A stretch of DNA of 64,000 nucleotides from Bacteroidales bacterium (GCA_022009815.1 CP091725.1:1991972-2055971); one strand, 5' to 3'; shown: positions 4,640-59,912, numbered from the stretch's first letter. Program-made: numbers and translations. Notes: generated by a model not told the origin, from the letters alone.

Positions 4640-6845
4640 TTATTTGTGAACCACGCGGTCGTTAAGTTCTGCCAGTTTGGCGCTGTTCCAGCGGTCGGTG
4701 GTGCCTACGAGGTAGCCCGTGATGCGCTGCAGCTTGTCGATTTTGTGGCTGCCGCACTTAGGGCATGTGTCGAGGTTGTCGGTGGCGTCTTCATATCCGC
4801 AGTCCATACAGCGGTTGCGGTTGTGGTTGACCGATCCGTATCCGATGTTGTACTTGTCGATGAGGTCGACGATGTCGGCGATAGCCTCTGGGTTGTGAGT
4901 TGCGTCGCCGTCGATTTCCACATAGAATATGTGTCCGCCGCGAGTGAGCTCGTGGTAGGGAGCCTCCACTTCAGCCTTGTGGCGAGGGCTGCACTTGTAC
5001 CATACCGGCACGTGGTTTGAGTTGGTGTAGTACTCTTTGTCGGTCACGCCTTTGATTATGCCGAACGTCTTGCGGTCGCGCTTGGTGAATTTTCCGGAAA
5101 GGCCTTCTGCCGGAGTGGCGAGCACGCTGAAGTTGTGGTTGTAGCGTTCAGAGAACTCGTTTGCCTTGCTTCGCATGTAGCCCACAATGCGCAGACCGAG
5201 CTCCTGACTTTCCTTCGACTCTCCGTGATGTTTGCCGGTGAGTGCCACAAGGCATTCAGCCAAGCCGATGAATCCGATTCCGAGTGTGCCCTGGTTGATA
5301 ACGCTCTCTACGGTCTGGTCGGGTTTCAGCTGGTCGCCTCCGTTCCATAGTTTCGACATCAGCAGCGGGAATTGCTTGGCAAGAGCCGTTTTCTGGAAGT
5401 CGTAACGCTCGCAGAGTTGTGTGGCTGTGATTTCAAGCATATTGTCGAGCTTCTTGAAGAAGGCATCGACGCGCTCTTTTTCGTTTTGGATGCCCATACA
5501 TTCGATGGCGAGTTTCACGATGTTGATTGTGGAGAACGACAGGTTGCCGCGTCCGATAGATGTCTTTTCGCCGAAGCGGTTTTCAAACACGCGCGTGCGG
5601 CATCCCATTGTAGCCACTTCGTAGTGATAGCGTTCCGGGTCGTCGGCGCGCCATTTCTCGTGGAAGTTGAAGGTGGCGTCGAGGTTCACGAAGTTTGGGA
5701 AGAAGCGGCGTGCTGTCACTTTGCATGCCAATTTATACAGGTCGTAGTTGCGGTCTTCCTTCAGATAGTTGACGCCGCGTTTCTTTTTCCAAATCTGGAT
5801 AGGGAAGATGGCTGTGGCTCCGTTGCCCACTCCTTCGTATGTTGAGTTGAGGATTTCGCGGATAATGCAACGGCCTTCGGCACTGGTGTCGGTGCCGTAG
5901 TTTATTGAGCTGAACACCACTTGGTTGCCTCCACGAGAGTGGATGGTGTTCATGTTGTGGATGAATGCTTCCATAGCCTGGTGTACGCGGTTGACGGTCT
6001 TGTTGATGGCGTGCTGCAGCGCACGGTCCTTACCTTCGAGTCCGTCGAGCGGCTTTGATGAAGTCGTCAAGTTTTATGTCATACAGGTCGCTGAAGTCCT
6101 GACCGAAGATGGCTTCGGTGTTTTTCACTTCTTCAACAAACGATGAGCGTACGTAGGGAGCCAGATAGAAGTCGAATGCGGGGATTGCCTGTCCGCCGTG
6201 CATCTCGTTCTGAGCTGTTTCGAGGGAGATGCAGCCGATGATGCTTGCTGTCTCGATGCGTTTTGCCGGGCGCGACTCTCCGTGGCCTGCCGAGAATCCG
6301 TATTTAAGCACTTTGTCGAGCGGATGCTGCACGCAGGTGAGACTCTTTGTCGGATAGTAGTCTTTGTCGTGGATGTGCAGATAGTTGCCTTTTACGGCGT
6401 CGGCTGTCTCTGGGGAGAGGAGGTAGTCGTCGACAAACGGTTTTGTTGTCTCGCTGGCAAATTTCATCATCATACCGGCTGGCGAGTCGGCGTTCATGTT
6501 GGCGTTCTCGCGTGTGATGTCGTTCGACTTCGCCTCGATGATTTCAAGGAAAATGTCGCGTGTCTTGGCGCGGCGTGCGATGCTGCGCTGGTCGCGGTAG
6601 GCGATGTAGCGTTTTGCCACTTCCTTGCGCGAACTCTTCATCAATTCAAGCTCAACGTTGTCCTGAATTTCCTCTACGCTCATTTGCTCTTTGCCGTTCA
6701 TGCCGATGCGGTCGGTGATTTTCTGGATAAGCGATTCGTCCTCGCCCTTCTCCGTCGTAATCATCGCTTTGCGGATTGCCGCCTTGATTTTCTCTTCGTT
6801 GTAGCCCACGACTCTTCCGTCGCGTTTAATCACTGTCTGTATCAT
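4640..6845 (-). CDS. nrdD: anaerobic ribonucleoside-triphosphate reductase, one apparent frameshift near 6046-6060
   Basis: There is an ATP-cone N-terminus (MIQTVIKRDGRVVGYNEEKIKAAI). The C-terminus has a zinc ribbon (CMDCGY...CPKCGS) and a glycyl-radical tail (RITGYLV). Listed ORFs 6030-6845 and 4640-6070 abut. Confidence 0.92.
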
Positions 6846-7209
6846 ATTCTTGGGTTAATTATTTCAGTTTTGGATTGTGGGTTCAAAGGTAGATATTGTT
6901 TTTCAAATAACAAAGTAAATTTTTATTTTTGGAAACTTTTTGGCAATTGTTAATTTTTAACTTGCTTATAATGAGTGGAATAAAAATATTTTTGGGAAAC
7001 TTTGTGTCTGAATAAGGATTTTTAGGTTTGAAAAAACGGGAAAACGGGAAGTTGGAAAACTCGGTGTGATGCGCCGTTGAAGGCTGTTGGTCACCCATCT
7101 GCAGGGATGCTGTCAAGGGATGCTGTCCCGGCTGTTTTTGATGAGTTGTGTCGATTGTTTTTTTTCGGGAGTCTTGGATTTTTTGTAATTTTGCAGTCCG
7201 CAAACAAAA

Positions 7210-8253
7210 ATGATGAGAATCAAGAAAATTTTAATGGTTTTGACAGCGATGGTGTGTGTTGCCGTTCCGGGCAAGGCATTGTCGTTTGCACTTGATTCGG
7301 TGGCGGAGTGGGGTAAGTTTCCTCGTTTCTGTGTCAATACCTATCGTTGGGGCGACCGTTTCTTCAATTCCTACGATTCTGCATACGTAAAAGGTACGGG
7401 CTATAAGATGAACGTGAAATTGCGCACCAACAGTTGGATTGACGACAATCGCTTTCTGATTGACCATGACTGCAAGGTGGAGATGCGTTCGCCGTCGACC
7501 AACACTATCGGTTTCGACATAACGTATCTCGCGGTGTCGCTCGGCTATGATTTCAACATCAACAAGCTGTTTGGCGGCGTTGACCGGCGCAAGTCGAAGT
7601 TCAATTTCGATTTTACGTGTGCTCTGTTTACCGCAAGCCTTTATTCTATAAAGAATGATGTGGGGATGAACCTTAAGCGGGTGGGCGACATGAAGGGCAT
7701 CAATGAGAAGTTTTACGGTGTGCGCACGTCGTCGTGGGGCATCGAGGCGGTTTATTTCTTCAACAACAAACGCTACAGTTATGCGGCGGCGTTCTCAATC
7801 AGCAAACTGCAGCTGCGCAGCCAGGGCTCTTTCTTCGTGGGTTTCTCCTACAACAATCAGGACCTTAATTTCGATTTCGCGAAACTTCCGGATTATCTGA
7901 AGCCTCAATTGCCGGAGGAATGGCACTCGAGGGTGTTCACCGTCAAGGAGCAGACCTGTGGCGTGAAAGGCGGTTATGCCTACAACTGGGTGCCGGCGAA
8001 GCACTACAACATTGGCGTGAGCGAGGCTGTGATTCCGTCGGTGTCGAAAGGCAAGCAGTCGAGTGTCAATCCGGGGTGTTCGTTCCGGCTGTACAACCGC
8101 CTGAATCTTTCTGTCACATGGAACAACCGCCGATGGTTTGCCGGAATTGTGGGCAAGACGGATGTGGCTGTTGTGGCCGACAAGAAAACGATTCTTGCCA
8201 ACTCGCTGTTCAGTGTGGAGATGAAAGTGGGATGGCGCTTCAACCTGTGGTAG
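7210..8253 (+). CDS. putative outer-membrane beta-barrel protein (DUF4421-like)
   Basis: A signal peptide is present (MMRIKKILMVLTAMVCVAVPGKA), the sequence has alternating beta-strand character, and it ends in an aromatic residue (RFNLW). A TAatTTTG -7 box lies at 7187-7194. The family name is from memory only. Confidence 0.55.
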   Translation: MMRIKKILMVLTAMVCVAVPGKALSFALDSVAEWGKFPRFCVNTYRWGDRFFNSYDSAYVKGTGYKMNVKLRTNSWIDDNRFLIDHDCKVEMRSPSTNTIGFDITYLAVSLGYDFNINKLFGGVDRRKSKFNFDFTCALFTASLYSIKNDVGMNLKRVGDMKGINEKFYGVRTSSWGIEAVYFFNNKRYSYAAAFSISKLQLRSQGSFFVGFSYNNQDLNFDFAKLPDYLKPQLPEEWHSRVFTVKEQTCGVKGGYAYNWVPAKHYNIGVSEAVIPSVSKGKQSSVNPGCSFRLYNRLNLSVTWNNRRWFAGIVGKTDVAVVADKKTILANSLFSVEMKVGWRFNLW

Positions 8254-8300
8254 ACACACATAGGAACTGTCGGTTTTGATGCTTCAGCCGTGCCGCTTTT

Positions 8301-9415
8301 TTAGTTCCCGATATTTTGGTTTTCAGCAGATTGTTCCGGTTTGCCTTCGTGCAGCACGTAGGTGTTGTAGTATGACAGAAGCAGTGTGGTGAGCGGCAAG
8401 GCGATTATCAAGCCGAGGAATCCGAGCAGCGATCCCCAGATTGACAGCGACAGAAGGATGATTGCAGGGTTGAGCCCCATTGTCTTTCCCATGATTTTTG
8501 GCACGAGATACAGGTCTTGTATCAGCTGTACCACACCATAGACCACCATTGCCAAAGCGAAAATCACCCAGAAGCTGGAATTTGTCTCGGCGGCATAGAC
8601 CACGCACAGCAGTGTGGTGGGCAGCAGCGAGATGAGTTGCAGATACGGCACCATGTTGAGCAGTCCGATAAACATGCCCATAATGATTGCGAGCGGAAGG
8701 TCGATGATGAGGAAGCCGATGCTGAAAGCACTCCGACGCACAGCGCTACGAGCGTTTGTCCGCGGAAATAGCGGTTCATGCTGTTTTTGATGTCGCCGGC
8801 GATTTTCAACACCGTCGGTTTGTATTTTTGAGGAATCAGGCTGCGCATGCTGTTCATGAAGCGGTCGTAATCGAGCAGGATGAAGATGAAGTATAGCAGC
8901 ACGATAAACCAACTGCACACTGTCAGCAGCATTGAGATGCTTCCGCTGACCATGGTCCATGTGCCCGACAGCGATTTTTGCACTATGTCGCTCCACTGGT
9001 CCTGCGTCAGCACGGATGCGAGTGTCTTCATGTCGACATATTTCATGACAAAGTCGTGTACAGCCTGCGGAATGTAGCGGCTGCTGCTTGATGTGGCATA
9101 GTCGTTGAACAGGTTGCCCACGGTGACAATCTCGTCGATGATGCGGGGGATGAGAAACCAGCCGAGCAGGGCGATGACTCCGAAGAGTTCGACAAGAAAG
9201 AGGAATATCGGCAGCACGTTGCCGCGGCAGCGAAGCAGCCGTTTGTTGAAAGCCACGAATGGTTCGAAGATGTAGGCAAGCAGGCAGGCTACGCAGAAAG
9301 GCAGCAGCGCGCCGCTGATTGCTTTGAGCAGCCAGTAGGCGCCGATAAGCGTGGCGATGGTGATCAGGATGCGCACCACGCGGTCGAACGTGAATGGTCG
9401 TGACGTGTCAAACAT
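8301..9415 (-). CDS. AI-2E family (PerM/UPF0118) transporter, one apparent frameshift near 8727-8737
   Basis: Listed ORFs 8564-9415 and 8301-8996 join as ...QTLVALCVGV/AFSIGFLIIDLPLAIIMG... The C-terminal motif NPAIILLSLSIWGSLLGFLGLIIALPLT is typical of this family. Confidence 0.82.
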
Positions 9416-9483
9416 TGTCTTATAGTCTTTTATTGTCTTTCCAAATTACATTATAATTTGCTCTGTGGCAAATAAAACGGCAT

Positions 9484-9520
9484 AAAAAAGCACCCTTGCC
9501 GAATAATGGCAAGGGTGCTT
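9484..9520 (-). terminator. intrinsic terminator after the GH97 gene
   Basis: A perfect 12-bp stem pairs agcacccttgcc (9489-9500) with ggcaagggtgct (9508-9519). A T6 run follows on the minus strand. Confidence 0.7.
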
Positions 9521-9538
9521 GACACGGATTGTGTGTCG

Positions 9539-11717
<2,179 letters not shown>

Positions 11718-11742: not shown

Positions 11743-11952
11743 TTAAGCTTCAAGTTCGGCAAGGATTTTTTTCAGTTCCTCGTCGGTGGAAAGCAGTTTA
11801 GCCTTGCACACTTTCAGCAATTCAAGAGAGCGCGACGTGAGTCGCGACAAGTTGTCGATGCTGCAGGCATCGCTCTGCATCTCACGCACAATCTTCTCCA
11901 ATTCGGCAACCGCCTCAGAGTATGTCAGTTTCTGAATCTCGTCTTTCTCCAT
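11743..11952 (-). CDS. xseB: exodeoxyribonuclease VII small subunit
   Basis: 69-aa protein MEKDEIQKLTYSEAVAELEKIVREMQSD... with the typical XseB coiled-coil layout. A TAtcTTTG -7 box lies at 11969-11976 (minus strand). Confidence 0.82.
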   Translation of the reverse strand: MEKDEIQKLTYSEAVAELEKIVREMQSDACSIDNLSRLTSRSLELLKVCKAKLLSTDEELKKILAELEA

Positions 11953-11970
11953 AAATAGGTAGTTTTTGCA

Positions 11971-12266
11971 AAGATAGTGCAAGCCGAGCGGAAAGAAAAG
12001 AGCTTGCTCAATTTTCTTTTCCGAGGCGCCGCCTATTTTATTGAAAGATAGTGCAAGCCGAGCGGAAAGAAAAGAGCTTGCTCAATTTTCTTTTCCGAGG
12101 CGCCGCCTATTTTATTGAAAGATAGTGCAAGCCGAGCGGAAAGAAAAGAGCTTGCTCAATTTTCTTTCCCGAGGCGCAGCCTATTTTATTGAAAGATAGT
12201 GCAAGCCGAGCGGAAAGAAAAGAGCTTGCACAATTTTCTTTTCCGAGGCGCCGCCTATTTTATTAA
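11971..12266. repeat. tandem array of four 74-bp units, each with an internal hairpin
   Basis: Units start at 11971, 12045, 12119 and 12193, an exact 74-bp period. The unit reads aagatagtgcaagccgagcggaaagaaaagagcttgctcaattttcttttccgaggcgccgcctattttattga. The copies differ by only a few substitutions. Confidence 0.95.
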
Positions 12267-12294
12267 AAGCAGCCCAACAGTCCTTGTTGTGATG

Positions 12295-12337
12295 AGAAAA
12301 TAAAAAAATGCGGGCAGCTGATAAGGCAGTCCGCATT
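12295..12337 (-). terminator. intrinsic terminator after rpiB
   Basis: The stem pairs aatgcgg (12307-12313) with ccgcatt (12331-12337). A T7 run follows on the minus strand. Confidence 0.6.
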
Positions 12338-12361
12338 CAGATTGTTTAATAGGCGCAAATT

Positions 12362-12814
12362 TTATTTCACCGGAATCTTTTCGATGCGGCGGATATGTCG
12401 TCCGCCCTCGAAGTCAGTGTTGAGAAACGTCTTCACCATCTCGATGGCTTGCTCGTTGCTAACGAAGCGACCAGGCATTGCAAGCACATTGGCATCGTTG
12501 TGTTGGCGCGAAAGGGCAGCCACTTCAGGAATCCAGCAAAGGGCAGCACGGATGCCCTGGTGCTTGTTGAGAGTCATGCTGATGCCCTCTCCGCTGCCGC
12601 ACACGGCGATGCCGGGATAGCATTCACCCTTCTCCACAGCCTCAGCGCAAGGGTGGGCGAAGTCGGGATAGTCGCAACTGTCGGTAGAATAAGTGCCGAA
12701 ATCCTTGTAGACTATGCCTTCTGATTCGAGGTAGGCTTTTACAGCCTCCTTAGTGTCGTAGCCGGCATGGTCGCTGCATAGCGCCACTGGGCAATTTTGT
12801 TTCAAGATGCTCAT
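12362..12814 (-). CDS. rpiB: ribose-5-phosphate isomerase B
   Basis: 150-aa protein with motifs ALCSDHAGYDTK and GIAVCGSGEGISMTLNKHQGIRAAL, characteristic of RpiB/LacAB. Confidence 0.92.
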   Translation of the reverse strand: MSILKQNCPVALCSDHAGYDTKEAVKAYLESEGIVYKDFGTYSTDSCDYPDFAHPCAEAVEKGECYPGIAVCGSGEGISMTLNKHQGIRAALCWIPEVAALSRQHNDANVLAMPGRFVSNEQAIEMVKTFLNTDFEGGRHIRRIEKIPVK

Positions 12815-12842
12815 ATTTTTGTTCTGTTTATTTCGTAGTGCA

Positions 12843-12990
12843 AAGATAGTGCAAGCCGAGAGGAAAGAAAAGAGCTTGCTCGATTTTCTTTTCCGAGGCG
12901 CCGCCTATTTTATGAAAAGATAGTGCAAATCGAATGCAAAGCGGCAAATTTATTTGCACGATTTGCTAAGATGCCGCCTATTTTATGAAA
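12843..12990. repeat. two further copies of the 74-bp repeat family, the second with a different hairpin core
   Basis: Copy 12843-12916 is near-identical to the 11971 array. Copy 12917-12990 keeps the flanks (aagatagtgcaa ... gccgcctattttat) but replaces the core with gcaaatcgaatgcaaagcggcaaatttatttgcacgatttgc. Confidence 0.85.
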
Positions 12991-13089
12991 AGAATTTTGA
13001 AGAGAAGATGACTTTTTACAAAAGAATTCTTGGAAATCGGGAAAATAGTGCTTAACTTCGTTGGAAATAACGAAATAAACCTAATAATT

Positions 13090-14268
13090 ATGAGAATCAT
13101 CAATTGTTTGAAGGCTGCCGTGCTGGCAGTGTTGGTGGGCGGCTCGTTGTGGAGTTGCTCGGGTGACAAGGGAAAGACCCGTTATGTACCGGTGGTGCTC
13201 GACGGCGAGGAGAAGTGGAGTATTCTGGACACGAAGACAGGCGATGTGCTTTGCCAGAATGATTTTGATGAAATGCCGTCGGTTGTTGAAGACGGGATGT
13301 TTGTGGTGCGCACGAAGAGTGGCTACTATGAGTGCTATAAGATTGACGACTCGAAAAATGCCATAGGCAAGGGCAAATATACGCAGCTCGGCACGTTTGG
13401 CGATGAAGACGTGACGTTTGCTGTGAAAGAAGGGCAAGGCATTATGATTGTCAACAAGAAATTTGAAGAGGTGAAGAAACTGCCTAAAAAAGTGTCGCGG
13501 ACAAGCGGTTTCTCTGAAGGCCTTGCCGCATTCTGCAAAGACGGCAAGTGGGGATTTCTCGACACGAAAGGAGAGGAAGTTGTCCCTGCAAAATACGATC
13601 AAGCCACTCCGTTTTCCGACGGCCGGGCGTTTGTGTTGAAGAATGAGAAGATTTTGATTATCGACAAAAAAGGCGAGACGATAAAGTCGATGAGCCTGGA
13701 TAAATACAACCCGATTGCATTCTATCACAATGGCTATGCACCGATTGCGAAGGGCGACAAGGTCGTGTTTCTTGACAAGAACGGCGAAGAGGCGTTCACC
13801 AACAGCAAGATGGAGAGTGACGGTTGCTATGAAATCAACGACGGCAAGACGGTGTTCCGCAGAGACGACAGATATGGCCTCATCTCTACCGACGGCGAGG
13901 TGCTTGTGCGCCCGAAATACTTATCGTTGGAGTATGCAAGCAAGAACCGCTACATTGCCTGCAACGACGACTTTAAATTTGGCGTGATTGACGCTAAAGG
14001 CGATGTTGTTATTGATTTTGAATACAGCGGACTGAAACAGACTTCTGTTGTCACCGACCGCTATTTTGCCAAAGACGGCAATTCGTGGGTGCTTATCAAC
14101 GAGAAAGGCGAGGAGCAGACAAAGGATTCCTACAAGGAGCTGAATTTAGCCGGGTCGCATGTCGACGTGTTCTACAGCGAGGTTGCCGAGGAGCCCGTGT
14201 TTGAGCCAGAGCCAGACGATTATGGCGTTGACTCTGCTGTCGTCGAAGAGGTGGCGGAGGCATATTGA
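13090..14268 (+). CDS. WG-repeat lipoprotein
   Basis: A lipoprotein signal is present (MRIINCLKAAVLAVLVGGSLWSC). Repeats of the KWGFLDTKGEEVVPAKYD type recur, and the C-terminus is acidic. The start was chosen at the ATG at 13090 rather than the listed 13030. Confidence 0.75.
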   Translation: MRIINCLKAAVLAVLVGGSLWSCSGDKGKTRYVPVVLDGEEKWSILDTKTGDVLCQNDFDEMPSVVEDGMFVVRTKSGYYECYKIDDSKNAIGKGKYTQLGTFGDEDVTFAVKEGQGIMIVNKKFEEVKKLPKKVSRTSGFSEGLAAFCKDGKWGFLDTKGEEVVPAKYDQATPFSDGRAFVLKNEKILIIDKKGETIKSMSLDKYNPIAFYHNGYAPIAKGDKVVFLDKNGEEAFTNSKMESDGCYEINDGKTVFRRDDRYGLISTDGEVLVRPKYLSLEYASKNRYIACNDDFKFGVIDAKGDVVIDFEYSGLKQTSVVTDRYFAKDGNSWVLINEKGEEQTKDSYKELNLAGSHVDVFYSEVAEEPVFEPEPDDYGVDSAVVEEVAEAY

Positions 14269-50266: not shown

Positions 50267-50493
50267 ATCTTTGCATAACATTTGAGAAACGGCGATTGGC
50301 AGGAGCTTTTCGCCGCCAACATATAGGATAAGACCGCAAGGCGTTTCAAGCGAAAATCTGGTAAATTGGAACTACGGAGACGATTGCGTGATGCTTATGC
50401 TATGCTTACGCATAGCGTGCATTCACGTACTCTCCGTAAAGGCTTTACCAGAGCCATCGCTTGAAGGTAGTGTGAATTGCACGCTACTTTTTT
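50267..50493 (+). ncRNA. candidate ~210-nt structured RNA or attenuator leader (promoter box, rod-like hairpin, intrinsic terminator)
   Basis: A TAtcTTTG box lies at 50267-50274. Positions 50345-50465 fold as five stacked helices: 50345-53/50457-65, 50358-65/50445-52, 50373-80/50431-38, 50387-94/50419-27 and 50397-405/50410-18. The terminator stem 50467-74/50480-87 is followed by T6 at 50488-50493, 27 nt before the next ATG. Confidence 0.45.
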
Positions 50494-50520
50494 ACCCTTG
50501 CCTAACGAAAGGAAACGATT

Positions 50521-50943
50521 ATGGGTAAAGTTCAGATTCTCGCCGTACTGACGATGGACGGATGTCTTTCTTCAGAGTTATATGATAAAGCACATCAGGA
50601 TTTGTGCCTTGACCGTTGCGGTCTTGATGAAATCAGGAAGAAAGCCTTTTACCGTGTGACACCGGACTATTCCATTTCAATGCTGCACGAATGGAGAAAA
50701 GACTGCACAAACATCCGTTACCTCGCGGAAGCCACACCGGACACGGCAGACTATATAAACGGACTGCTGCGGATGCACGCTGTGGATGAAATCATACTAT
50801 ACACCGTTCCTTTCATATCCGGAAGCGGACGACATTTTTTTAAGTCGGCTCTGCCAGAGCAACACTGGACGCTTTCCTCTTTGAAAAGCTATCCCAACGG
50901 TGTATGTCGCATTATCTATATCCTTGATAAAAAAGCAAGATAG
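50521..50943 (+). CDS. short dihydrofolate-reductase-like (RibD_C fold) family protein, divergent
   Basis: 140 aa. The pattern ILAVLTMDGCLS ... VDEIILYTVPFISGSGRHFF ... W.L.S.K.YPNGV resembles RibD C-terminal/DHFR-like proteins, from memory. Function unknown. Confidence 0.5.
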   Translation: MGKVQILAVLTMDGCLSSELYDKAHQDLCLDRCGLDEIRKKAFYRVTPDYSISMLHEWRKDCTNIRYLAEATPDTADYINGLLRMHAVDEIILYTVPFISGSGRHFFKSALPEQHWTLSSLKSYPNGVCRIIYILDKKAR

Positions 50944-51063
50944 CCAAAATGTGCGGCAAGCATACATTTCTATTTTCAGGAATAGAATAAATGTTCCGAT
51001 TACAAACAATTTAAGTCGGAGATAATTTGTCCTTGTGAAAAAATACTGAATTTTATACCTCTG

Positions 51064-51106
51064 AAATCCAGCACTTTGTAAAATTGAGTGTTGGATTTTT
51101 TATTTT
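51064..51106 (+). terminator. intrinsic terminator after the DHFR-like ORF
   Basis: A 12-bp stem pairs aaatccagcact with agtgttggattt (one G-U pair). The sequence tttttatttt follows. Confidence 0.7.
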
Positions 51107-51181
51107 CTGCCGCGTTTTTTGCCAATTATATTCATGTGCGCACGCAGAAAACAAAGTGTAATTTTCAAAATTGACAGAACC

Positions 51182-51787
51182 ATGAATTATTTCTTGCTGG
51201 CGGAAACCGACTTTTTCCGCCTGATAAACGAAGCCGGCGACTGCAATATGGAAACGGCATACACGGCTTTCGCCACCCAAGTGATCGAACTGTGCAACGG
51301 CGGCATGGACATGAACCTTACCGTCATCGCGCTTGCCTACATCGAAATCGAGTTGCAGCACCATCCCGTACGTAATCTGTCAGAAGAAAAAAGAGAGATT
51401 GCCGCCTACGTCAGCAAGGCTCTGTCTTTCGTAAGAAAGATGCAGAAATTCCTTGCCACGCCCCAAGTGCCACCACTAATATCCGCCAACAACGCAACAG
51501 AAACCACCGCCAGCCTTCTTCAATGGACGGGCAATGCCATCGACCTCGTGGAACTTATCTACGGCATAGACGTGATGGGCTGCATCAACAACGGCAATAT
51601 GCCGCTCAAACAGCTCGCCCCACTTCTCTATAAGATATTCGGGGTTGATTCTAAAGACTGCTACCGCTTCTACACTGATATCAAACGCCGGAAGAACGAA
51701 AGCCGCACCTATTTCATTGACAGGATGCAGGAAAAACTGAACGAGAGAATGTTGCGTGATGAGGAGTTGGAGCGGATGAGAAAATAA
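51182..51787 (+). CDS. rteC: RteC regulatory protein
   Basis: 201 aa from MNYFLLAETDFFRLINE. Its position downstream of rteB and the tail CYRFYTDIKRRKNESRTYFIDRMQEKLNERM fit the RteC family. Confidence 0.82.
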   Translation: MNYFLLAETDFFRLINEAGDCNMETAYTAFATQVIELCNGGMDMNLTVIALAYIEIELQHHPVRNLSEEKREIAAYVSKALSFVRKMQKFLATPQVPPLISANNATETTASLLQWTGNAIDLVELIYGIDVMGCINNGNMPLKQLAPLLYKIFGVDSKDCYRFYTDIKRRKNESRTYFIDRMQEKLNERMLRDEELERMRK

Positions 51788-51809
51788 AAAAATATCCATT
51801 ACATATGAG

Positions 51810-51845
51810 AAGACAGGAATACTCGTATCCTGTCTTTTTATTTTC
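51810..51845 (+). terminator. intrinsic terminator after rteC
   Basis: A 9-bp stem pairs aagacagga with tcctgtctt. The sequence tttttatttt follows. Confidence 0.75.
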
Positions 51846-51999
51846 ATTTAATTATATATTAATTAGCACAATATATGTGAGTTTTTCATTCCTATAAGGA
51901 CAAATTTCAGAAACGTATGTCTGGTAAATTATTGAGTCATCATAGTATGAACATATATCATTACTAAAAACAATGAAACAACTTCCATAAGATTGTGGT

Positions 52000-52070
52000 T
52001 GTAAAAATCGCCATTTAATAGCCCGTTTTTTTTGTAAAATTCGCCAATTAAAAAAATATGATTATCTTTG
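52000..52070 (+). promoter_or_regulatory. promoter of the AAA/KAP cargo operon with two 19-bp direct repeats
   Basis: tgtaaaaatcgccatttaa (52000-52018) and tgtaaaattcgccaattaa (52033-52051) are spaced 33 bp apart. They lie directly upstream of the TAtcTTTG box at 52063-52070. The ATG is at 52089. Confidence 0.4.
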
Positions 52071-52088
52071 CATTATATTTTATAAGGT

Positions 52089-53219
52089 ATGGAAACAGTA
52101 AATAGAATACTTCAAGAGAAGATTACAGCACGAATCGCGCCCAATAAAGCAGTACTGATTTTTGGTGCTCGCCGTGTTGGTAAAACGGTAATGATGCGTA
52201 AAATTGTGGACAACTATTCAGGTAGGACGATGATGCTCAACGGCGAAGACTACGACACATTAGCACTATTGGAGAATCGCTCAATAGCCAATTATCGGCA
52301 TTTATTGGATGGTATTGATTTGCTGGCTATTGATGAGGCACAGAACATACCACAAATCGGTAGTATTCTGAAGTTGATAGTTGATGAAATACCGGGAATA
52401 AGTGTCTTGGCAAGTGGTTCTTCGTCATTCGATTTGCTGAATAAGACTGGTGAACCGTTGGTCGGCCGCAGTACGCAATTTCTCCTTACACCATTCTCGC
52501 AACGGGAAATCGCACAGACGGAAACGGCACTTGAAACCCGCCAGAACCTCGAAGCGCGCTTGATTTACGGTTCCTATCCCGAAGTAGTAATGATGGAGAA
52601 CTATGAACGTAAAACAGACTACCTACGTGATATTGTCGGTGCATACCTGCTTAAAGATATCTTAGCAATTGACGGCTTAAAAAATTCGAGCAAGATGCGC
52701 GATCTACTGCGATTGATAGCTTTTCAGTTGGGCAGCGAAGTTTCTTACGAAGAGTTAGGTAAACAACTCGGCATGAGCAAGACGACCGTTGAAAAATACC
52801 TCGACCTATTGGAAAAGGTCTTCGTTATCTATCGTCTGGGGGCTTATTCGCGTAACCTACGCAAGGAGGTTACAAAAGCTGGCAAGTGGTACTTCTACGA
52901 CAACGGCATTCGCAATGCCATTATCGGGGCTTTCTCACCGCTGGCCATTCGGCAGGATGTCGGTGCGCTGTGGGAGAACTACATCATCGGAGAGCGGCGC
53001 AAAGCGAACTTCAATGAGGGACTGCACAGGGAGTTCTATTTCTGGCGCACCTACGACAAACAGGAAATCGACCTGATTGAGGAGAGTGCCGACAGTCTTA
53101 CCGCCTTGGAGTTCAAGTGGGGAAATAAAATGCCGGCCGCACCGAAAGCCTTCCAAGAAGCCTATCCCTATGCCGAGTTTCATGTGGTAAATCGGGAGAA
53201 TTATTTGGAGTTCGTATAA
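52089..53219 (+). CDS. AAA-type ATPase with C-terminal DUF4143-like domain
   Basis: 376 aa. Walker A is GARRVGKT and Walker B is LLAIDEAQ. The protein has the overall AAA_14 + DUF4143 layout. The gene is intact and AT-rich. Confidence 0.8.
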   Translation: METVNRILQEKITARIAPNKAVLIFGARRVGKTVMMRKIVDNYSGRTMMLNGEDYDTLALLENRSIANYRHLLDGIDLLAIDEAQNIPQIGSILKLIVDEIPGISVLASGSSSFDLLNKTGEPLVGRSTQFLLTPFSQREIAQTETALETRQNLEARLIYGSYPEVVMMENYERKTDYLRDIVGAYLLKDILAIDGLKNSSKMRDLLRLIAFQLGSEVSYEELGKQLGMSKTTVEKYLDLLEKVFVIYRLGAYSRNLRKEVTKAGKWYFYDNGIRNAIIGAFSPLAIRQDVGALWENYIIGERRKANFNEGLHREFYFWRTYDKQEIDLIEESADSLTALEFKWGNKMPAAPKAFQEAYPYAEFHVVNRENYLEFV

Positions 53220-53235
53220 TCAATAAATTACGTAT

Positions 53236-56200
53236 ATGGAAACAAAACTACAATCCAAACAGCAATATCCGCGGTTTATCCAAAATAAACCGTGTGGTAT
53301 TGACAAATTCGATGGAGGTTCGCAAGAAAGGTTGGCAAAAACTATTGCTCGCCATTTTTGTCAGAATGATTCATTGGATGAGGAATGTACTTTACCTCGA
53401 ATTATCGGCATCGAAGGTATTTGGGGATCTGGAAAATCCAACGTGGTTAAAATGTTGGAACGTGAATTATCAGACGACTATTACTTTTTTGAGTATGACG
53501 CATGGGGACATCAAGAGGACTTGCAACGCCGCTCTATATTGGAATTGCTTACAAGCAAACTTATTGATGATGGTATCCTATCTGGAAATGCAACAATAAA
53601 AGTCAAAGGTGGAGGTACGAAAACCGTATCATGGTCTGAAAAGCTGAAATATTTATTAGCCCGTAAAACGGAGACCGTAACCGAAAAATATCCCCTTATC
53701 AGTAATGGTATGGTTGCGGCATTTTTGGTTGCAGTTTTAACTCCGATATTTACATTTATTGCGTATGCAGTAAAACCTACACCCACAACATGGTGGTTTT
53801 CTTTATTGTCTATTATCATAGCTGCACTGCCAGTTCTTATTGCATTGTGCGTTTGGAAATGGGCATATAGCAAAGATCATAAATATGGATGGAGTTATAT
53901 GTTAGCTATTTATCAAGATAAAGTCGAAAAGGACGTTTGCTATGAGACTTTGAGCGAAGACGAACCAACGGTTTACGAGTTCAAAACATGGATGCAAGAC
54001 ATTTCTGATTTTATCAAGGAAAAAGGACAACGTAAATTAGTCCTTGTTTTTGACAACATGGATCGTCTCCCCGCTGAAAAAGTAAAAGAATTATGGTCTT
54101 CTATCCATACGTTCTTCGCCGATAGCGGTTTTGAAAATGTTTGGGCTGTTATTCCTTTCGATGAAACACATTTAGCTTGTGCATTCGGAGATGAGACCGA
54201 CGAACAAACGAAACAACTGACCAAGTATTTTATCAATAAAACTTTCCCTATTGTTTATCGTGTTGCTCCTCCTGTTATTACCGACTATCGAAGTATATTC
54301 AACAAACTGTTTGTTGAAGCATTTGGAGAAACAGAAAATGAAGCGAAAGAAACTATAAATCGGATATTCAGATTGGTAAATCCTAATGCCAATGTTAGGG
54401 AAATTATATCATATATCAATGAGATGGTCGCTCTTAAACAAGAGTGGTGTAACGAAATTTTGATGATAAACATAGCATTGTTCTGTTTGAAGAAGACGGA
54501 TATTCTGGCAAATCCAGTAGAACAAATATTGTCCGGCGACTATCTGAATGGCATTCAAACAATAATTAACAATGATCTGCAAACACAACGCGAAATTGCA
54601 GCTTTGGTATATGGTGTCGATGTTGAAGATGCTCGACAAATTCCATTGAAAAAATATATTGAAGGCTGCATCAACGGAGAAGAAGACCACGACATAAATC
54701 AATATGCAGAGACTAATAAACAATTTGACACTGTATTAGAAGAAGTTATACAATGTATGGACAATGCGCTTATCGATAAGATTATACATTGTTTGCATAA
54801 ATTAACTCGAAAGAGCGATGTTATTCTGCGTGTATGGCAAAGAATAGCACAATTGAAATTAAAAGAATCCATAGAGAAGCAGGTGTTCCCTGTCGAATAC
54901 CAAGAACTGCTGTTGCATTTAGACACGGAAAGCCAAAACCATGTGATTGCTCAATTATATAAGAAGATAGTTCGGTTCAATGACTTCAATGGCGGCGACT
55001 ATTTCAAAACGTTAGATGCAATAGACAGGTTTATTGCGCAAATAAGTTGGCGTGCGATTTTACGTCATTGATTGAAGCAAAAACAGTCAAGCCAAATACA
55101 TTTATCGATTATATTCAAGCTGCAAATGCAACAGATGCTGCCTATCGGGATAACGCGACAACTAAAGCATATAAATATTATCAAGTAGCAACAAATTCGG
55201 AGGCGCTCGATAATTATTTGGCAAACTTACTACCCGATAATTTCGACCATGCAGATATTGTAAAAACGTTAAAAGATAATTCTACCTATACGTTTCCAAC
55301 GCTTTTGCAAGCGATCACGAATTGCATTGATGAACAGAATGTAAATAAAGATAATATAGGGGCTATATTTACAACCTATCGTTTATTGGCATCTGACGAA
55401 GAAAGACCTTTACCTGTAACGTTAGATTCAACCTACATAAATCAGTTGCATTCTGAATTAGAAACTGATGGCCGAAACATTAAAGAGTCTGGATATTACG
55501 ATTTAGTCGCCATGCAATTGGCACATGGTCATTCCGTTTCCTTAATAGAGGGTGGAGATATAAAATATGTTGCAGAACTCATGGACTATTATGTGGATCA
55601 TGGAGACTTATTAGTAAATAGTGTGGGATGGAATATACCGCTATTAAATGAAACACTACAATACATGGTAAATCATAAACTTGGCTATAAATTATTGCTC
55701 TCAGACATATTGCCCCAATTTGAAGATATTAAGAACAGAATAGGTGTAACGGATGAGGTATTTATCGAGCATTTAGCAGAGTGGAATACCGATTTGGATA
55801 AGTATATCACTAAGAACAATATTAAAGATGTAATTCCTGACGCATCTTTTTACGATTTGACCACTAAAATAAGCAATGTCCTGACCGATCATATCAATAA
55901 AATAGCGTTCGAAGCGTTGTCTGAAATAAGTGTTGATACATTATACGCCCAAAGAACAGCACATACATCATATTATTGGTTTGTCGCAATAAAACATTTA
56001 CTGGCTAAAATCAAATCCTTGCCAGATAACTTGACTGAATTTGGCAAAAAGATTCTGATGGATATTGCTTCTGGAACTCAAAGTTTGAATCCTTTCCCTA
56101 ATTGTTTCAAGAATATAGTTGAAAGATTGGATAAACGAAAAATTAAATCGACAGTTACCGATATAAGAAATGATTTCTGCATCGGTAAAAAGACTATCAA

Positions 56201-56489
56201 TGCAATAAAGTTTCAATTTTTCGAAACATGGCTTAGATCGCATGGTAATTTGAAAAGTCAAGCTGGAGACGTTATTGATAAAATAGTGAAACCTGTAATT
56301 TCCGATGGGGCATGCCGTTCATTGATTCTGCAAAACAAAGATTTTTATATGGATTTAATAAATACAGCAGGGGATGATGCTTATGAATTGAAAAAGAGTC
56401 TCCGAAACCTCATACAAAAAGATTCAGATCCGCAATTGGTTAAATTTGTCAATTCGATAGATTCAGTACCTGAGGTTGAAACCGCGTAA
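53236..56489 (+). CDS. KAP-family P-loop NTPase with two inserted TM helices and a ~650-aa uncharacterised C-terminal region; one apparent frameshift near 55044
   Basis: Walker A (GIWGSGKS) is at 53416-53439. Two hydrophobic helices (about 53709-53770 and 53790-53855) lie between Walker A and Walker B (LVLVFDNMDR), which is the KAP hallmark. Listed ORFs 53236-55071 and 55047-56489 join as ...RFIAQIK/LACDFTSLIEAK if A2 becomes A3. Confidence 0.78.
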
Positions 56490-56494
56490 GTATT

Positions 56495-56627
56495 TGTCTA
56501 ACAAGTCCGAATTTTACGATTTTACCCGTCAGAACTGAAGTGCCCCCCAAAAAAATTGTATCCAACTTTTGGGGGTCACTTCAAACTTCGATAGGGATAA
56601 TTTTCAATTTTGGGGACTTGTTAGACA
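56495..56627. repeat. compound inverted repeat / bidirectional terminator between the KAP gene and mobC
   Basis: Outer perfect 14-bp arms are tgtctaacaagtcc (56495-56508) and ggacttgttagaca (56614-56627), and the right arm includes the mobC stop codon. The inner stem pairs 56537-56552 with 56567-56582 (gaagtgccccccaaaa / ttttgggggtcacttc, one mismatch). Confidence 0.75.
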
Positions 56628-58638
56628 GTCTCATTATCTGGTAGCAGTTTACACAGCACCGGATCGTTTTTGATACGCTCCAGTTCCTCCTGCACAATCT
56701 GCTTCACCTCTTCCTTGATGCGCCGGTAGTTCGCCTGCACCGTTTCCTTCATGCGGTCGTTGCCGTCCTCGTCCGTGAAGTTTGTAATGACGGGAATTTT
56801 CTTGTAGGCACTTTCTTCCCGTTTCACCTTTTCGGCATCCACCACAATCTCGCAATGAAAAATCTTCTGCTCGATACGCTCGTTGAAGTTGTCGGATACA
56901 GAACCGACAAACATTCCCTGCGTAAGCCCGGAAATCTTACTCGGTGGAATGAGCGCGTCCATCTGCGTGTTGATGGAGGTGGAAACATCCTGCCGGTTGA
57001 TGGAGATGGACTGCCGTTTCTGCAACACCTTACCGAACCGCTCGGAGAGCGTCTTGGCTGTTTCCCCCACCACCTGACCGGAGAAAATATTGCCGACAGT
57101 GTTCATCACCACTTTCGCCTCTTTGTCCCCGTAGTCACGCACTAACTGGCTGAAATCCTGAAAGCCCAGACACACGGCAACCTTGTTGCTTCGGGCGGTA
57201 GCTATAAGATTGTCCAACCCTTTGAAGTATATTGTGGGCAACTCGTCGATGATGACCGATGACTTCAGCATCCCCTTCTTGTTGATGAGCTTCACGATAC
57301 GGGAATTATACAGACCGAGTGCCGCACCGTAGATATTCTGACGGTCGGGATTGTTACCCACGCAGAGGATTTTCGGCTCTTCGGGATTGTTGATGTCCAG
57401 CGTAAACTCGCTGTCTGACATCACCCAGTAGAGCTGCGGTGAAATCATCCTCGAAAGCGGGATTTTTGCCGACGCTATCTGACCCATGAGCTGCTCCGCA
57501 GCCCCTCCAAGCCACGCATCCATGAACGGCGAAAGGTAGTTCTCCAGCTCCGGATAAGAGGTCAGTATCGGAAATATATCCTCGTAACGGCGGTTCAGAA
57601 ACTCGATAGCATGGGGAAACGTGCAAAACTTCCCGTTCTGATAGATTTGAGATACCAGATAATACTGGCAAACAGAATGATAGGTGACTCCACGAAGAAG
57701 TCGCCCTGCTTTTGCACCCACGTTTTATTGAGGTTGAGCATTATTGTGTAGGCACTCTCATAGGCATCCGTAATATCTTCCATAAAATCCGGGTGAATGG
57801 GATTGCACCGATGAGAGCGTCGCGGGTCGTCGAAGTTGATCACATAGAACTTCGGCTTTACCTTGTAGCCGTCCGGGTGGTTCAGCAAATGGTTGTAGGC
57901 AATAGTAGATAGGTCGGGATACTTGAAATCGTAGATGTATTGACTAAAGCCCTTTTCAATCTGTTGCTTGATAAAATTGTTTACCACGGCATAGGACTTG
58001 CCGCTGCCCGGCGTACCCAACACGATGGACGCACGGAAGGGATTAACTACATTGATCCAACCGTTGTTCCAGCGTTTCCTGTAATAGAAACGTGTCGGCA
58101 GATTGACCGAATACTCGCTTTCGATAAGCCTCGTTTCCTGCATGAAACTCTCGTTCTCGTTGTTGAAAACATCCTCCATCAAATTGTGTTTCAACAGGCG
58201 GCTCATCCACAGACCACCCATCAACAGGCAGACATAGCCCGTTCCAATGGTAAGGACATACAGTCCCGTCACCGCTTCAAGCGGCAGCGGCAGGGGCAGC
58301 AACCACCAGTTCAGGAAAAACAGCACGAACCCGACGGCAAATGCTGTCCAGATTCTCCCCCAAGTGATTTTCTCACCCTTGACACCCTTCGTACCCAGAC
58401 AGGACAAGGCAAGCAAAAGGACGGAAAACAGCTTCGTGTAGAGAATGGAATGGAACAGCCCCGCCGTGCGGTCGAAGTTCAGAAGGATTTTGTCCACCAC
58501 GCCGATGTTCACGCCCCACAGCCGGATGGCTTCGTAGCAGAACCAGTACACGTTCATGACCACTAAAATGATACTCACGGCACGCAGAAAATCCATGATT
58601 TTCGCCAATGCCCTCAAATCGTCTTCTTGTTGTGACAT
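56621..58638 (-). CDS. mobC: type IV coupling protein (VirD4/TraG-like; MobC of CTnDOT-type mob operon), one apparent frameshift at the T3 run 57646-57648
   Basis: The N-terminus has TM helices and the Walker A motif is VLGTPGSGKSYAVV. Listed ORFs 57595-58638 and 56621-57721 join as IIWYLK/IYQNGKFCTFPHAIEF. Confidence 0.86.
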
Positions 58639-58668
58639 ACATTGATTTTTTAATTGTTGATACTCTGA

Positions 58669-59912
58669 TTACATACCCAAGCCCTTGCGTTTTTTCTTCT
58701 TTTTGCGCTTCATCGCCCGGATGAAAGCCTCTTCCTCGGCATCTACCGCCGGACCTTCGGGAGTGAGCAAGCCCATACCGCCCGATATATCTTCACTGTC
58801 GTAGGCGGTCTGCCCGTGTGCCTTGTCCGCAGCATCCACAGGGATGGATAGCGGTATCGGCGGTTGTCCGGCGTATGGCAGGGTGAAGTGTTCCTGCAAG
58901 GCATTCGCCGAAAGCTCCTTACCCATGCGCGAACCGTTCAGCACGCATCCCGTGCGGTGGTCGATGAAGGTAGCCCCATAGATGCGCCCTTCCTCTGTGT
59001 AGCGCAGTACGGTGTCGATGCCCTTCTCTTTGAGTTGGGATACAAATTTGTCCTTGTCATAAGTGCCTTGCAGCACGGAAAGGACGGTGCGTTTCGTCAT
59101 GTCTGCCAGTTTCCTATCCTTGATTTCCGATTTGGAACGGACAAACTTCTTCTGTACGGCTTCATAGCCTGCGGACTTCCCGAAAAGCGAGGATTTGAAC
59201 GGGTTGCCCACCTTGTTACCCTTGTCGTCCGTGACGGAATAGACCAGCCCGTGATACTCCCGTCCGCGCACGTTGCCCCTCGCTTCCTCCACCGTCATAT
59301 TATATAAGGAAAGGAGCGCACGGTATTCGCCCATCGTCTGGAAACGGTACTGCCCATTCAGAGCCTTCACGGTGTTGCCTACCTGCTTCTTCACATCACC
59401 TGCCGATGCGGCCACCTTGCGCAACGGATTATCCAATCTCTGATTTACGTTCTGCCGGATGCAATCCGTACTTCTGTTCCAGTTCCCTGCGGATACGGTC
59501 GCTGCGGCGGTAGAGAAAATCCCGGTTGAGCCTTTTCCCGTTCTCGTCCACGTTGACCGTCACGATGTGCAGGTGGTGGCGGTCGATGTCCTCGTGCTTG
59601 AATACAAGATAAGGCTGGTTTCCGAAACCGAGTTTTTCCAGATACTCGCGGGCGATATTCTGCAACTCAATATCGGTCAGCACATCCTCCGGGTGCGGGT
59701 TGAGAGAGATATGCACCACCGGCTTCTCGATCTTCATCTGCGGTGGCAGGAAGGTGAGAAAACCCTCCATCGCCTTGCCTATGTCCACCGTTCCCGAACC
59801 GTCATTGTAGATGCGGTTGGTGGTGAGAAGCCGCCCCTGCGCCTCGTTAATCTTCTCCCCGTTGTAGGCAATCGCGCCGTACAACGAACTTCCTACACTG
59901 ATTTGCGACCAT
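58669..59912 (-). CDS. mobB: relaxase (MobB), apparent frameshifts at the T3 runs 59902-59904 and 59444-59446
   Basis: With one extra A, the ATG at 59912 gives MVAKISVGSSLYGAIAYNGEKINEAQG. The histidine motif is HHLHIVTVNVDENG. The C-terminal half is listed ORF 58669-59436 (joined as AERKN/QRLDNPLRK). Confidence 0.84.

Follow-up and report, generated by a model that had tools for sequence, protein, structure and literature searches.

We analysed a 64,000-nucleotide stretch of a Bacteroidales genome (GCA_022009815.1, CP091725.1:1991972-2055971; here called the window), which carries the tetQ-rteA-rteB-rteC / mobC-mobB-mobA region of an integrative and conjugative element (ICE) of the CTnDOT/CTn341 type, and concentrated on the two genes that lie between rteC and mobC. 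Gene 1 encodes an ATPase with AAA_14, helix-turn-helix (HTH) and DUF4143 regions, and gene 2 encodes a large membrane KAP NTPase. An earlier note on this DNA had described the pair as an inserted, AT-rich cargo and had suggested that it might be a two-component conflict or defence system. We found that positions 51837-56635 are a discrete 4.8-kb accessory cassette, that each of its genes also occurs without the other, and that the slot which holds it carries alternative defence-type cargo, or nothing, in sister ICEs. The genes and their flanks lie in the window as follows.

rteC, ending at 51787: left flank of the cassette (Pfam RteC, E = 1e-25).
51837..56635, plus strand: the portable cassette of 4.8 kb, made up of promoter, gene 1, KAP gene and 3' hairpin element.
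52089..53219, plus strand: gene 1, 376 aa, AAA_14 + HTH + DUF4143 (Pfam; PADLOC PDC-S01).
53236..55071, plus strand: N-terminal open reading frame (ORF) of the KAP gene as read, with Walker A, membrane hairpin, Walker B and the start of the helical region.
53416-53439, plus strand: Walker A of the KAP protein, GIWGSGKS, residues 61-68.
53704-53874, plus strand: membrane hairpin of the KAP protein, hydrophobic helices at ~157-179 and ~186-213.
54037-54066, plus strand: Walker B of the KAP protein, LVLVFDNMDR, residues 268-277.
55047..56489, plus strand: C-terminal ORF of the KAP gene, the remainder of the all-helical region.
56621..58638, minus strand: mobC, type IV coupling protein; right flank, convergent with the KAP gene.

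The limits of the cassette were set by comparison with two Duncaniella chromosomal loci (L003 and L010), where the two genes have a rubrerythrin gene on one side and a glycoside hydrolase gene on the other. Their DNA aligned with the window at 88.9% identity across 4809 nt, with sharp limits exactly at 51837, directly past the rteC hairpin, and at 56635, at the right arm of the 3' hairpin. The cassette is a discrete portable unit found in two kinds of site, the ICE slot and the Duncaniella chromosomal site, which bears out the note's view of inserted cargo between rteC and the mob operon. The pair also occurred in three more contexts, namely a Prevotella amnii ICE, the equivalent slot of a diverged ICE and another mobile context. 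The genes are co-oriented and 16 bp apart, as the note had described (gene 1 ends at 53219 and gene 2 starts at 53236), and this 16-nt spacer is nearly identical across five contexts in which KAP identity ranges from 78% to 100%; the pairing is thus found outside the window's element with its spacer kept, once in the same slot of a diverged ICE. Positions 51001-59000 are the same as the Bacteroides fragilis YCH46 chromosome (AP006841.1) apart from two single-base gaps, and the exact gene-1 protein was indexed in 94,624 blocks of the sequence collection. The note's sharp drop in base composition over the whole interval held for the leader (G+C 0.26) and the KAP gene (0.35-0.37, with 0.31-0.34 at third codon positions, GC3) but not for gene 1, whose composition (G+C 0.46, GC3 0.52) is like that of the ICE backbone.

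Gene 1 is a full-length PADLOC PDC-S01 protein: its residues 4-376 matched profile PDLC04789 over positions 2-373 of 375 (E = 1.3e-154). Walker A (GARRVGKT) and Walker B (LLAIDEAQ) motifs, together with Pfam matches to AAA_14 (2e-25) and DUF4143 (7e-44), agree with the earlier description of a compact AAA ATPase with a DUF4143-like C-terminus. DUF4143 has been placed in the list of the PD-(D/E)XK superfamily (PMC3424549), and the gene-1 make-up of ATPase plus PD-(D/E)XK fits the description of PDC-S01 (AAA_14 + DUF4143). Three residues, D328, E341 and K343, are invariant across our alignment of close homologues (A6), and AlphaFold places them on strands 2 and 3 of a predicted alpha-beta-beta-beta-alpha-beta unit, in a model that is confident only locally (mean predicted local distance difference test score, pLDDT, 54.8) because homologue input was limited to at least 82% identity. 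An HTH_11 match was seen at residues 213-245, with weak matches to CasR/Csa3-type HTH regulators, and a search of PDB sequences with gene 1 gave no match. Purifying selection acts across the whole protein, with a ratio of nonsynonymous to synonymous rates (omega) of 0.01-0.05. Homologues of 83-87% identity were found as solitary genes in three unrelated chromosomal contexts, each with the same promoter repeats.

Gene 2 bears the KAP hallmark that the note had recognised, two transmembrane helices between Walker A and Walker B. KAP_NTPase (Pfam PF07693) matched residues 46-398 at 69.5 bits against a cut-off of 20, and a hydropathy scan and an AlphaFold model both put the two helices within the NTPase domain. 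In the AlphaFold model (mean pLDDT 83.7, ~90 in the C-terminal region), residues 410-1075 (~670 aa) are predicted to be all-helical. Searches left this long part as unexplained as the note had found it: the C-terminal ORF and region matched no Pfam, PADLOC, NCBIfam or PHROG family, the KAP profile matched no PDB sequence, and Foldseek runs of the model against PDB and BFVD returned generic AAA+/KAP and helical-repeat matches only, with full-length template-modelling (TM) scores of 0.1-0.2. The best of these was RdrA (8fnu_A, E = 5.5e-4, TM 0.14-0.19), and no fold could be assigned to the C-terminal region.

The KAP protein represents a family whose length of 1050-1110 aa is kept down to ~25% identity and which is spread over Bacteroidota with few members elsewhere; it comprises ~300 clusters at 50% identity, nearly all of the same architecture. 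A search with the last 480 aa found 292 matching cluster representatives among 1.84 billion, and in full-length matches the domain was always C-terminal, in proteins of ~1030-1135 aa, the other matches being shorter and likely fragments. KAP is under purifying selection (omega 0.10-0.17), its C-terminal region being the fastest-evolving part. Outside the closest clade, the neighbours of KAP genes are rich in defence genes: they often comprise type III methylase/restriction pairs, GmrSD, AbiJ, HipA, a PLD nuclease, Schlafen-type proteins or SMC-like ATPases, the first four beside distant relatives, and some copies are in prophages. In one such prophage setting (loci L004-L007, positions 5118-11258), a relative of 56% identity lies 3' of an RNase_T/DnaQ-like exonuclease gene and beside a pair formed by an AAA_15/AAA_21 ATPase gene and a 173-aa gene, an arrangement suggestive of a defence cluster that the prophage carries between its lysis and tail genes. 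We considered RNase_T as an alternative KAP partner in this 56% clade and set it aside, as it is likelier a prophage replication gene (phrog_192, DNA polymerase exonuclease subunit).

As read in the window, the KAP gene is split into two ORFs by a run of three adenines (55040..55042, plus strand) in place of four. All 12 of the other copies compared directly have A4 at this site, and the intact product is 1084 aa long. Across 15 kb (44.3-59.2 kb), what sets the window apart from near-identical references is a group of seven homopolymer contractions, with essentially 0 substitutions; the contractions lie at the following positions.

45468, 46313, 47279, 48870, 50287, 55040 and 57646: homopolymer contractions.

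Through these contractions tetQ, rteA, the KAP gene and mobC each read as two ORFs, mobC by a T4-to-T3 change at 57646. Because the KAP split is one of seven contractions that lack accompanying substitutions, we judged the frameshift to be almost certainly a sequencing artefact, and the source assembly appears to carry systematic homopolymer under-calling. A programmed frameshift or phase variation at the A-run was ruled out, the run being only 3-4 nt long and A4 in twelve copies. That the KAP gene and mobC are true pseudogenes in the sequenced strain, and the cassette decaying cargo, seems to us very unlikely. The frameshifts at 55040 and 57646 stand in the sequence as given, and real disruptions are seen elsewhere (L078 has Q254*, L076 a 4-nt deletion, L082 IS21 and L116 a 1.16-kb insertion, while L139 and L185 are truncated), but all seven differences in the window are homopolymer contractions that hit tetQ and rteA as well, which is the signature of sequencing or assembly error. 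Among the disrupted copies, moreover, one set came from a listing confined to places with differing neighbours, and many of the fragmented metagenome copies come from contigs of low coverage in which gene 1 is broken up as well. The idea that repeated KAP inactivation is a sign of toxicity was not sustained, given this biased sample and the low-coverage contigs.

We then surveyed the slot itself in a metagenome scan with RteC, which gave 80 loci (L107-L186) with RteC 93-100% identical, taking window positions 51788-56665 as the slot. Its contents were distributed as follows.

6/80 loci: slot empty, the mobC stop lying 85-96 nt past the rteC stop.
16/80 loci: SocA/Panacea antitoxin and a 251-aa protein.
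7/80 loci: GNAT protein.
13/80 loci: Schlafen-AlbA_2/HATPase_c_4/Fic-like_C protein with small or GNAT partners.
3/80 loci: AbiD or Abi_2.
1/80 loci: IS21.
1/80 loci: gene 1, then GajA (PADLOC E = 1e-193) and a UvrD-type GajB (Gabija).
22/80 loci: gene 1 first.
4/80 loci: unrelated content, no match to the cargo set.
7/80 loci: downstream sequence too short to class.

Where gene 1 came first, KAP was next in all 14 loci, among the 22, that were long enough. Slot variants diverge just past the rteC stop and rejoin ~45 nt within the 3' end of mobC, points that fit exchange by recombination in the flanks. On these contents, the slot between rteC and mobC in CTnDOT-like ICEs is a hotspot of exchangeable defence and addiction cargo, a new observation; the literature that we searched describes neither the hotspot nor the two ORFs of the cassette, and assigns these ORFs no role. 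Conflict-type cargo, which the note had proposed, is supported by this context, since the slots of sister ICEs hold alternative defence-type cargo or nothing, and the defence-rich neighbourhoods of KAP relatives point the same way.

The slot's setting could also be taken to mean that both proteins do housekeeping for the ICE, serving entry exclusion, transfer control or maintenance with no role in phage defence. The cassette does have the regulatory gene rteC on one side and the mob operon on the other, the KAP protein is membrane-bound as is the mating apparatus, a diverged copy in an ICE of another type is again the neighbour of an rteC homologue, and the F-plasmid protein PifA belongs to the KAP family (PMC13552941). 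We nonetheless give this little credence: sister ICEs with RteC 93-98% identical lack the cassette or have the slot empty while their mob genes are intact, the cassette is also chromosomal in Duncaniella, and KAP-family members reside in prophages and next to restriction systems, far from ICEs.

Whether the genes form one system was addressed through their occurrence apart, and they do not co-occur wherever either is found. KAP relatives of 56% identity or less never have gene 1 as a neighbour, more than 40 KAP-family loci are without a gene-1 relative, and an intact one is absent from every KAP locus under 78% identity. At 70% KAP identity, KAP is intact (1087 aa) and gene 1 is reduced to a remnant of 124 aa in which the Walker A and ExK motifs are degraded; this ORF (L084 5609-5983, also in L085 and L086) is an in-frame internal deletion that joins residues 1-77 to 327-376, at 52% identity, and in L084 the remnant and KAP adjoin a divergent 270-aa RteC homologue of another ICE type. 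In the sister ICE that carries Gabija, homology to the window cassette stops ~11 nt past the gene-1 stop.

An obligate two-component system, in which KAP senses infection and gene 1 is the effector, or the reverse, and neither works alone, would account for the co-orientation, for a 16-nt spacer nearly constant in five contexts and for the travel of the pair as one cassette. Synonymous divergence (dS) is also similar for both genes in L003 and L008 (0.34-0.36 for gene 1 versus 0.42-0.46 for KAP). It is discordant between the genes in L083 and L087, however, and GC3 differs as well (0.52 for gene 1 versus 0.32 for KAP). Solitary gene-1 homologues of 83-87% identity with the same promoter repeats, the more than 40 KAP-family loci that lack gene 1, an intact KAP next to a decayed remnant, and Gabija in the place of KAP after gene 1 in the equivalent slot all speak against obligate cooperation. 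We consider such a system unlikely, and the note's suggestion that gene 1 and KAP are a new two-component system is not supported by these comparisons. The simplest reading would be that two single-gene modules, independent of each other, have come to share one transcription unit, perhaps with some synergy between them.

The regions on either side of the genes contain the following elements.

51806..51845, plus strand: rteC terminator hairpin with U-run, 13 bp, -15.7 kcal/mol, z = -4.8; left flank of the cassette.
51999..52018, plus strand: direct repeat 1, TTGTAAAAATCGCCATTTAA, candidate operator of the gene-1 promoter.
52032..52051, plus strand: direct repeat 2, TTGTAAAATTCGCCAATTAA, candidate operator of the gene-1 promoter.
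52063..52070, plus strand: predicted promoter box TATCTTTG, 19 nt 5' of the ATG, read from sequence.
56494..56628, no strand assigned: compound inverted-repeat element, 135 nt, three-tier; right end of the cassette.

The rteC terminator, a separate promoter region with paired direct repeats and a compound inverted repeat at the end are thus present where the earlier note had put them. Between the rteC hairpin and gene 1 runs an AT-rich leader of 250 nt, which holds the direct repeats and the promoter box. The repeats are 20 nt each, 90% alike and spaced by 33 nt, and two matches appeared in 0 of 100 shuffles. Their core, AAAAATCGCCAnTT, is kept as two copies 33 nt apart with ACGTTTTT between them 5' of all gene-1 homologues examined (window, L003, L083, L084, L087, L090, L093, L095 and L097, solitary homologues included), at about -92/-59 from the gene-1 ATG in most loci and at -126/-93, a 33-nt shift, in two. 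Because they are kept in front of solitary and paired homologues alike, the repeats belong to gene 1's own promoter; RteC sites were ruled out, as the repeats accompany gene 1 outside ICEs as well. The box TATCTTTG, a putative promoter element, fits TAnnTTTG, the -7 promoter consensus of Bacteroides, and is also conserved in the homologous upstream regions. The repeats are likely the operator for some regulator, possibly the gene-1 protein acting through its own HTH.

In L081 (CP043839.1), by comparison with window positions 50284-52062, rteC is missing together with a dihydrofolate-reductase-like ORF and that part of the gene-1 promoter which bears the repeats, and rteB is joined to gene 1 right at the TATCTTTG box, which might put the cassette under read-through from the tetQ operon. 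The window has a conserved 140-aa ORF between rteB and rteC (50521-50943), with a weak RibD_C / dihydrofolate-reductase-family signal and the RefSeq annotation 'dihydrofolate reductase family protein'.

The repeats raise a further alternative, that gene 1 is less a defence effector than a regulator or carrier module, an ATP-dependent HTH protein which binds them and controls downstream cargo, KAP here and Gabija elsewhere. The HTH_11 match at 213-245 with its weak CasR/Csa3-type matches, the conservation of the paired repeats at 33-nt spacing before gene-1 homologues, and the layout of gene 1 followed by two different partners would all suit it. Most of the close homologues examined, however, are not followed by a gene in the same transcript, purifying selection is strong along the entire protein, and the invariant D328/E341/K343 triad argues for a catalytic role; a mainly regulatory gene 1 is accordingly improbable in our judgement.

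At the right end of the cassette, the compound element has outer arms at 56495-56508 / 56614-56627 and inner arms at 56536-56552 / 56567-56583, with the mobC stop codon in the right arm of the hairpin. Its computed fold (-55.6 kcal/mol; z = -8.0 on the plus strand and -7.5 on the minus strand) suggests that it is probably a bidirectional terminator. The arms recur elsewhere around a different interior: the arm motif, CTGTCTAACAAGTC ... GACTTGTTAGACAG(Y)CTC, was found in L003 (6577-6605 and 11383-11401) and in L090 (4746-4890 and 10747). In Sanguibacteroides it bounds a ~130-nt hairpin with another interior, 5' of a solitary gene-1 homologue, and in Duncaniella a short 'empty' arm-motif hairpin lies at the left flank of the cassette, making TTAGACAGCCTC a 12-nt direct repeat that flanks it. 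Arm-motif elements could be a terminator family resembling repetitive extragenic palindromes (REP-like) or a recombination site. An Rfam scan of 51500-56900 found nothing above noise, the arm-motif element included, and an integron attC-like site was considered for the 3' hairpin, to which no integrase is linked. On the far side of this element, mobC is broken in L074 and L078 (~11750-13131), and also in L147, L149 and L184, by a group II intron-type reverse transcriptase gene (550 aa; domains RVT_N, RVT_1 and GIIM).

The observed basis consists of the cassette limits, the domains encoded, two genes that are independent of each other and both under purifying selection, and contexts rich in defence genes; from it we read the cassette as two independently acting single-gene defence-type proteins in a variable slot of a CTnDOT/CTn341-family ICE, at a probability of roughly 0.6. 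Activity against phages or other mobile genetic elements, like each step of the mechanism that follows, is what this reading would predict. Both genes would be transcribed from gene 1's promoter. Gene 1 would be a cytoplasmic AAA+ ATPase with a DNA-binding HTH and a PD-(D/E)XK nuclease-like domain, which may recognise and cut invading nucleic acid with the help of ATP and probably binds the two direct repeats in its own promoter. The KAP protein would be an inner-membrane protein anchored by the helical hairpin inserted in its NTPase domain; its fast-evolving helical solenoid may recognise a phage or incoming-element component at the membrane, and binding or hydrolysis of NTP would then switch the protein to block infection, either by interference at the membrane/DNA-entry step or by damage to the membrane or the energy supply.

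Several points weigh against reading the cassette as two defence proteins. The assignment to defence is guilt by association, made without a formal background rate. PDC-S01 is still a computational candidate, validation being pending for most PDCs (PMC12988326). The KAP copy as read in the window is frameshifted, and we saw no effector domain or standout catalytic motif among the few invariant residues of its C-terminal region. Constancy of the 16-nt spacer over 78-100% KAP identity also fits cooperation between the genes. The slot, finally, is home to GNAT genes and a toxin-antitoxin-like pair as well, and to call it an 'accessory/addiction slot' would be less specific but safer.

Resistance to tetracycline and erythromycin in human-gut Bacteroides is carried mainly by CTnDOT-type elements, the subject of decades of research, and the carrier ICE is among the most widespread mobile elements of these bacteria. 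If the slot is an immune-gene hotspot, antibiotic-driven spread of the ICE would also spread phage resistance, which would bear on phage therapy and on gut phage-host dynamics. The cassette offers two test cases, one from the abundant PDC-S01 class and one from the Bacteroidota branch of the newly recognised KAP-NTPase defence proteins, and natural isogenic variants of the slot (empty, Gabija, AbiD) exist as controls. More speculatively, the ~1085-aa Bacteroidota KAP might be a stand-alone membrane immune protein with a new helical sensor, co-selected with PDC-S01 through synergy as are Tmn and Gabija, and might shape phage and ICE susceptibility across gut Bacteroidales, with slot swapping as a population-level immune polymorphism; we hold this extension tentatively. 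Novelty is modest in that both genes belong to known candidate kinds, the hotspot being the useful new observation.

Among known systems, the slot resembles the defence hotspots of SXT/R391 ICEs, in which, as LeGault and colleagues reportedly described in 2021, a fixed slot holds alternative anti-phage systems in near-identical elements. Both have a fixed slot between conserved ICE genes with swapped systems; the rteC-mobC slot belongs to another ICE family (Bacteroidales CTnDOT type), is another slot and holds other cargo.

For the genes, the note had known of no described system of this composition. This calls for qualification, as gene 1 is a PADLOC PDC-S01 protein and single-protein transmembrane KAP NTPases with a C-terminal region lacking any known domain have since been demonstrated to act against phages (PMC13552941). 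PDC-S01 is a single-gene candidate, an ATPase fused to PD-(D/E)XK, and is among the commonest predicted defence loci (PMC12988326, PMC13356809). Gene 1 shares with it an end-to-end profile match, the ATPase and PD-(D/E)XK make-up and close homologues that are solitary, and departs from it in being co-transcribed with a second defence-type gene.

QatA (of QatABCD) and PifA, both linked to phage exclusion, share the KAP-type P-loop with the window KAP, but profile coverage ruled out either identity. The QatA match covers the P-loop stretch only (residues 31-121, or 31-109 with NCBIfam) at 27 bits versus a cut-off of 600, and none of qatB, qatC or qatD lies beside the KAP gene, whose neighbours are gene 1 and mobC. 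The PifA match is limited to residues 33-80, and the C-terminal region is unrelated. PDC-S20, a short KAP-like candidate with profiles of 446-464 positions, was likewise rejected, the match being confined to partial stretches (58-92 or 245-417) at E = 1e-8 to 4e-5.

Tmn, described in PMC13552941 as a YobI-like membrane P-loop NTPase that synergises with Gabija, is like the window KAP a single-gene NTPase with membrane helices after Walker A, and its link to Gabija parallels the presence of Gabija in the place of KAP after gene 1 in the sister ICE. Tmn is of a different NTPase family; no Tmn/YobI match appeared in the Pfam or PADLOC scans, the PADLOC version used possibly predating Tmn.

The same 2026 study (PMC13552941) reported that single membrane KAP NTPases with a C-terminal region lacking any known domain protect Enterococcus faecalis from phages, that protection requires Walker B and the C-terminal region, and that EF_KAP does not act by abortive infection; it also assigned PifA of the F plasmid to the KAP family. 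Like these proteins, the window KAP combines in a single polypeptide a KAP domain, membrane helices and an extended C-terminal part without a domain or structure match, and both are found on mobile DNA or in defence contexts. The window protein differs in having both helices inside the NTPase domain and a C-terminal solenoid of ~670 aa versus 322 aa. By architecture it fits the class described in that study, as a different and Bacteroidota-specific family.

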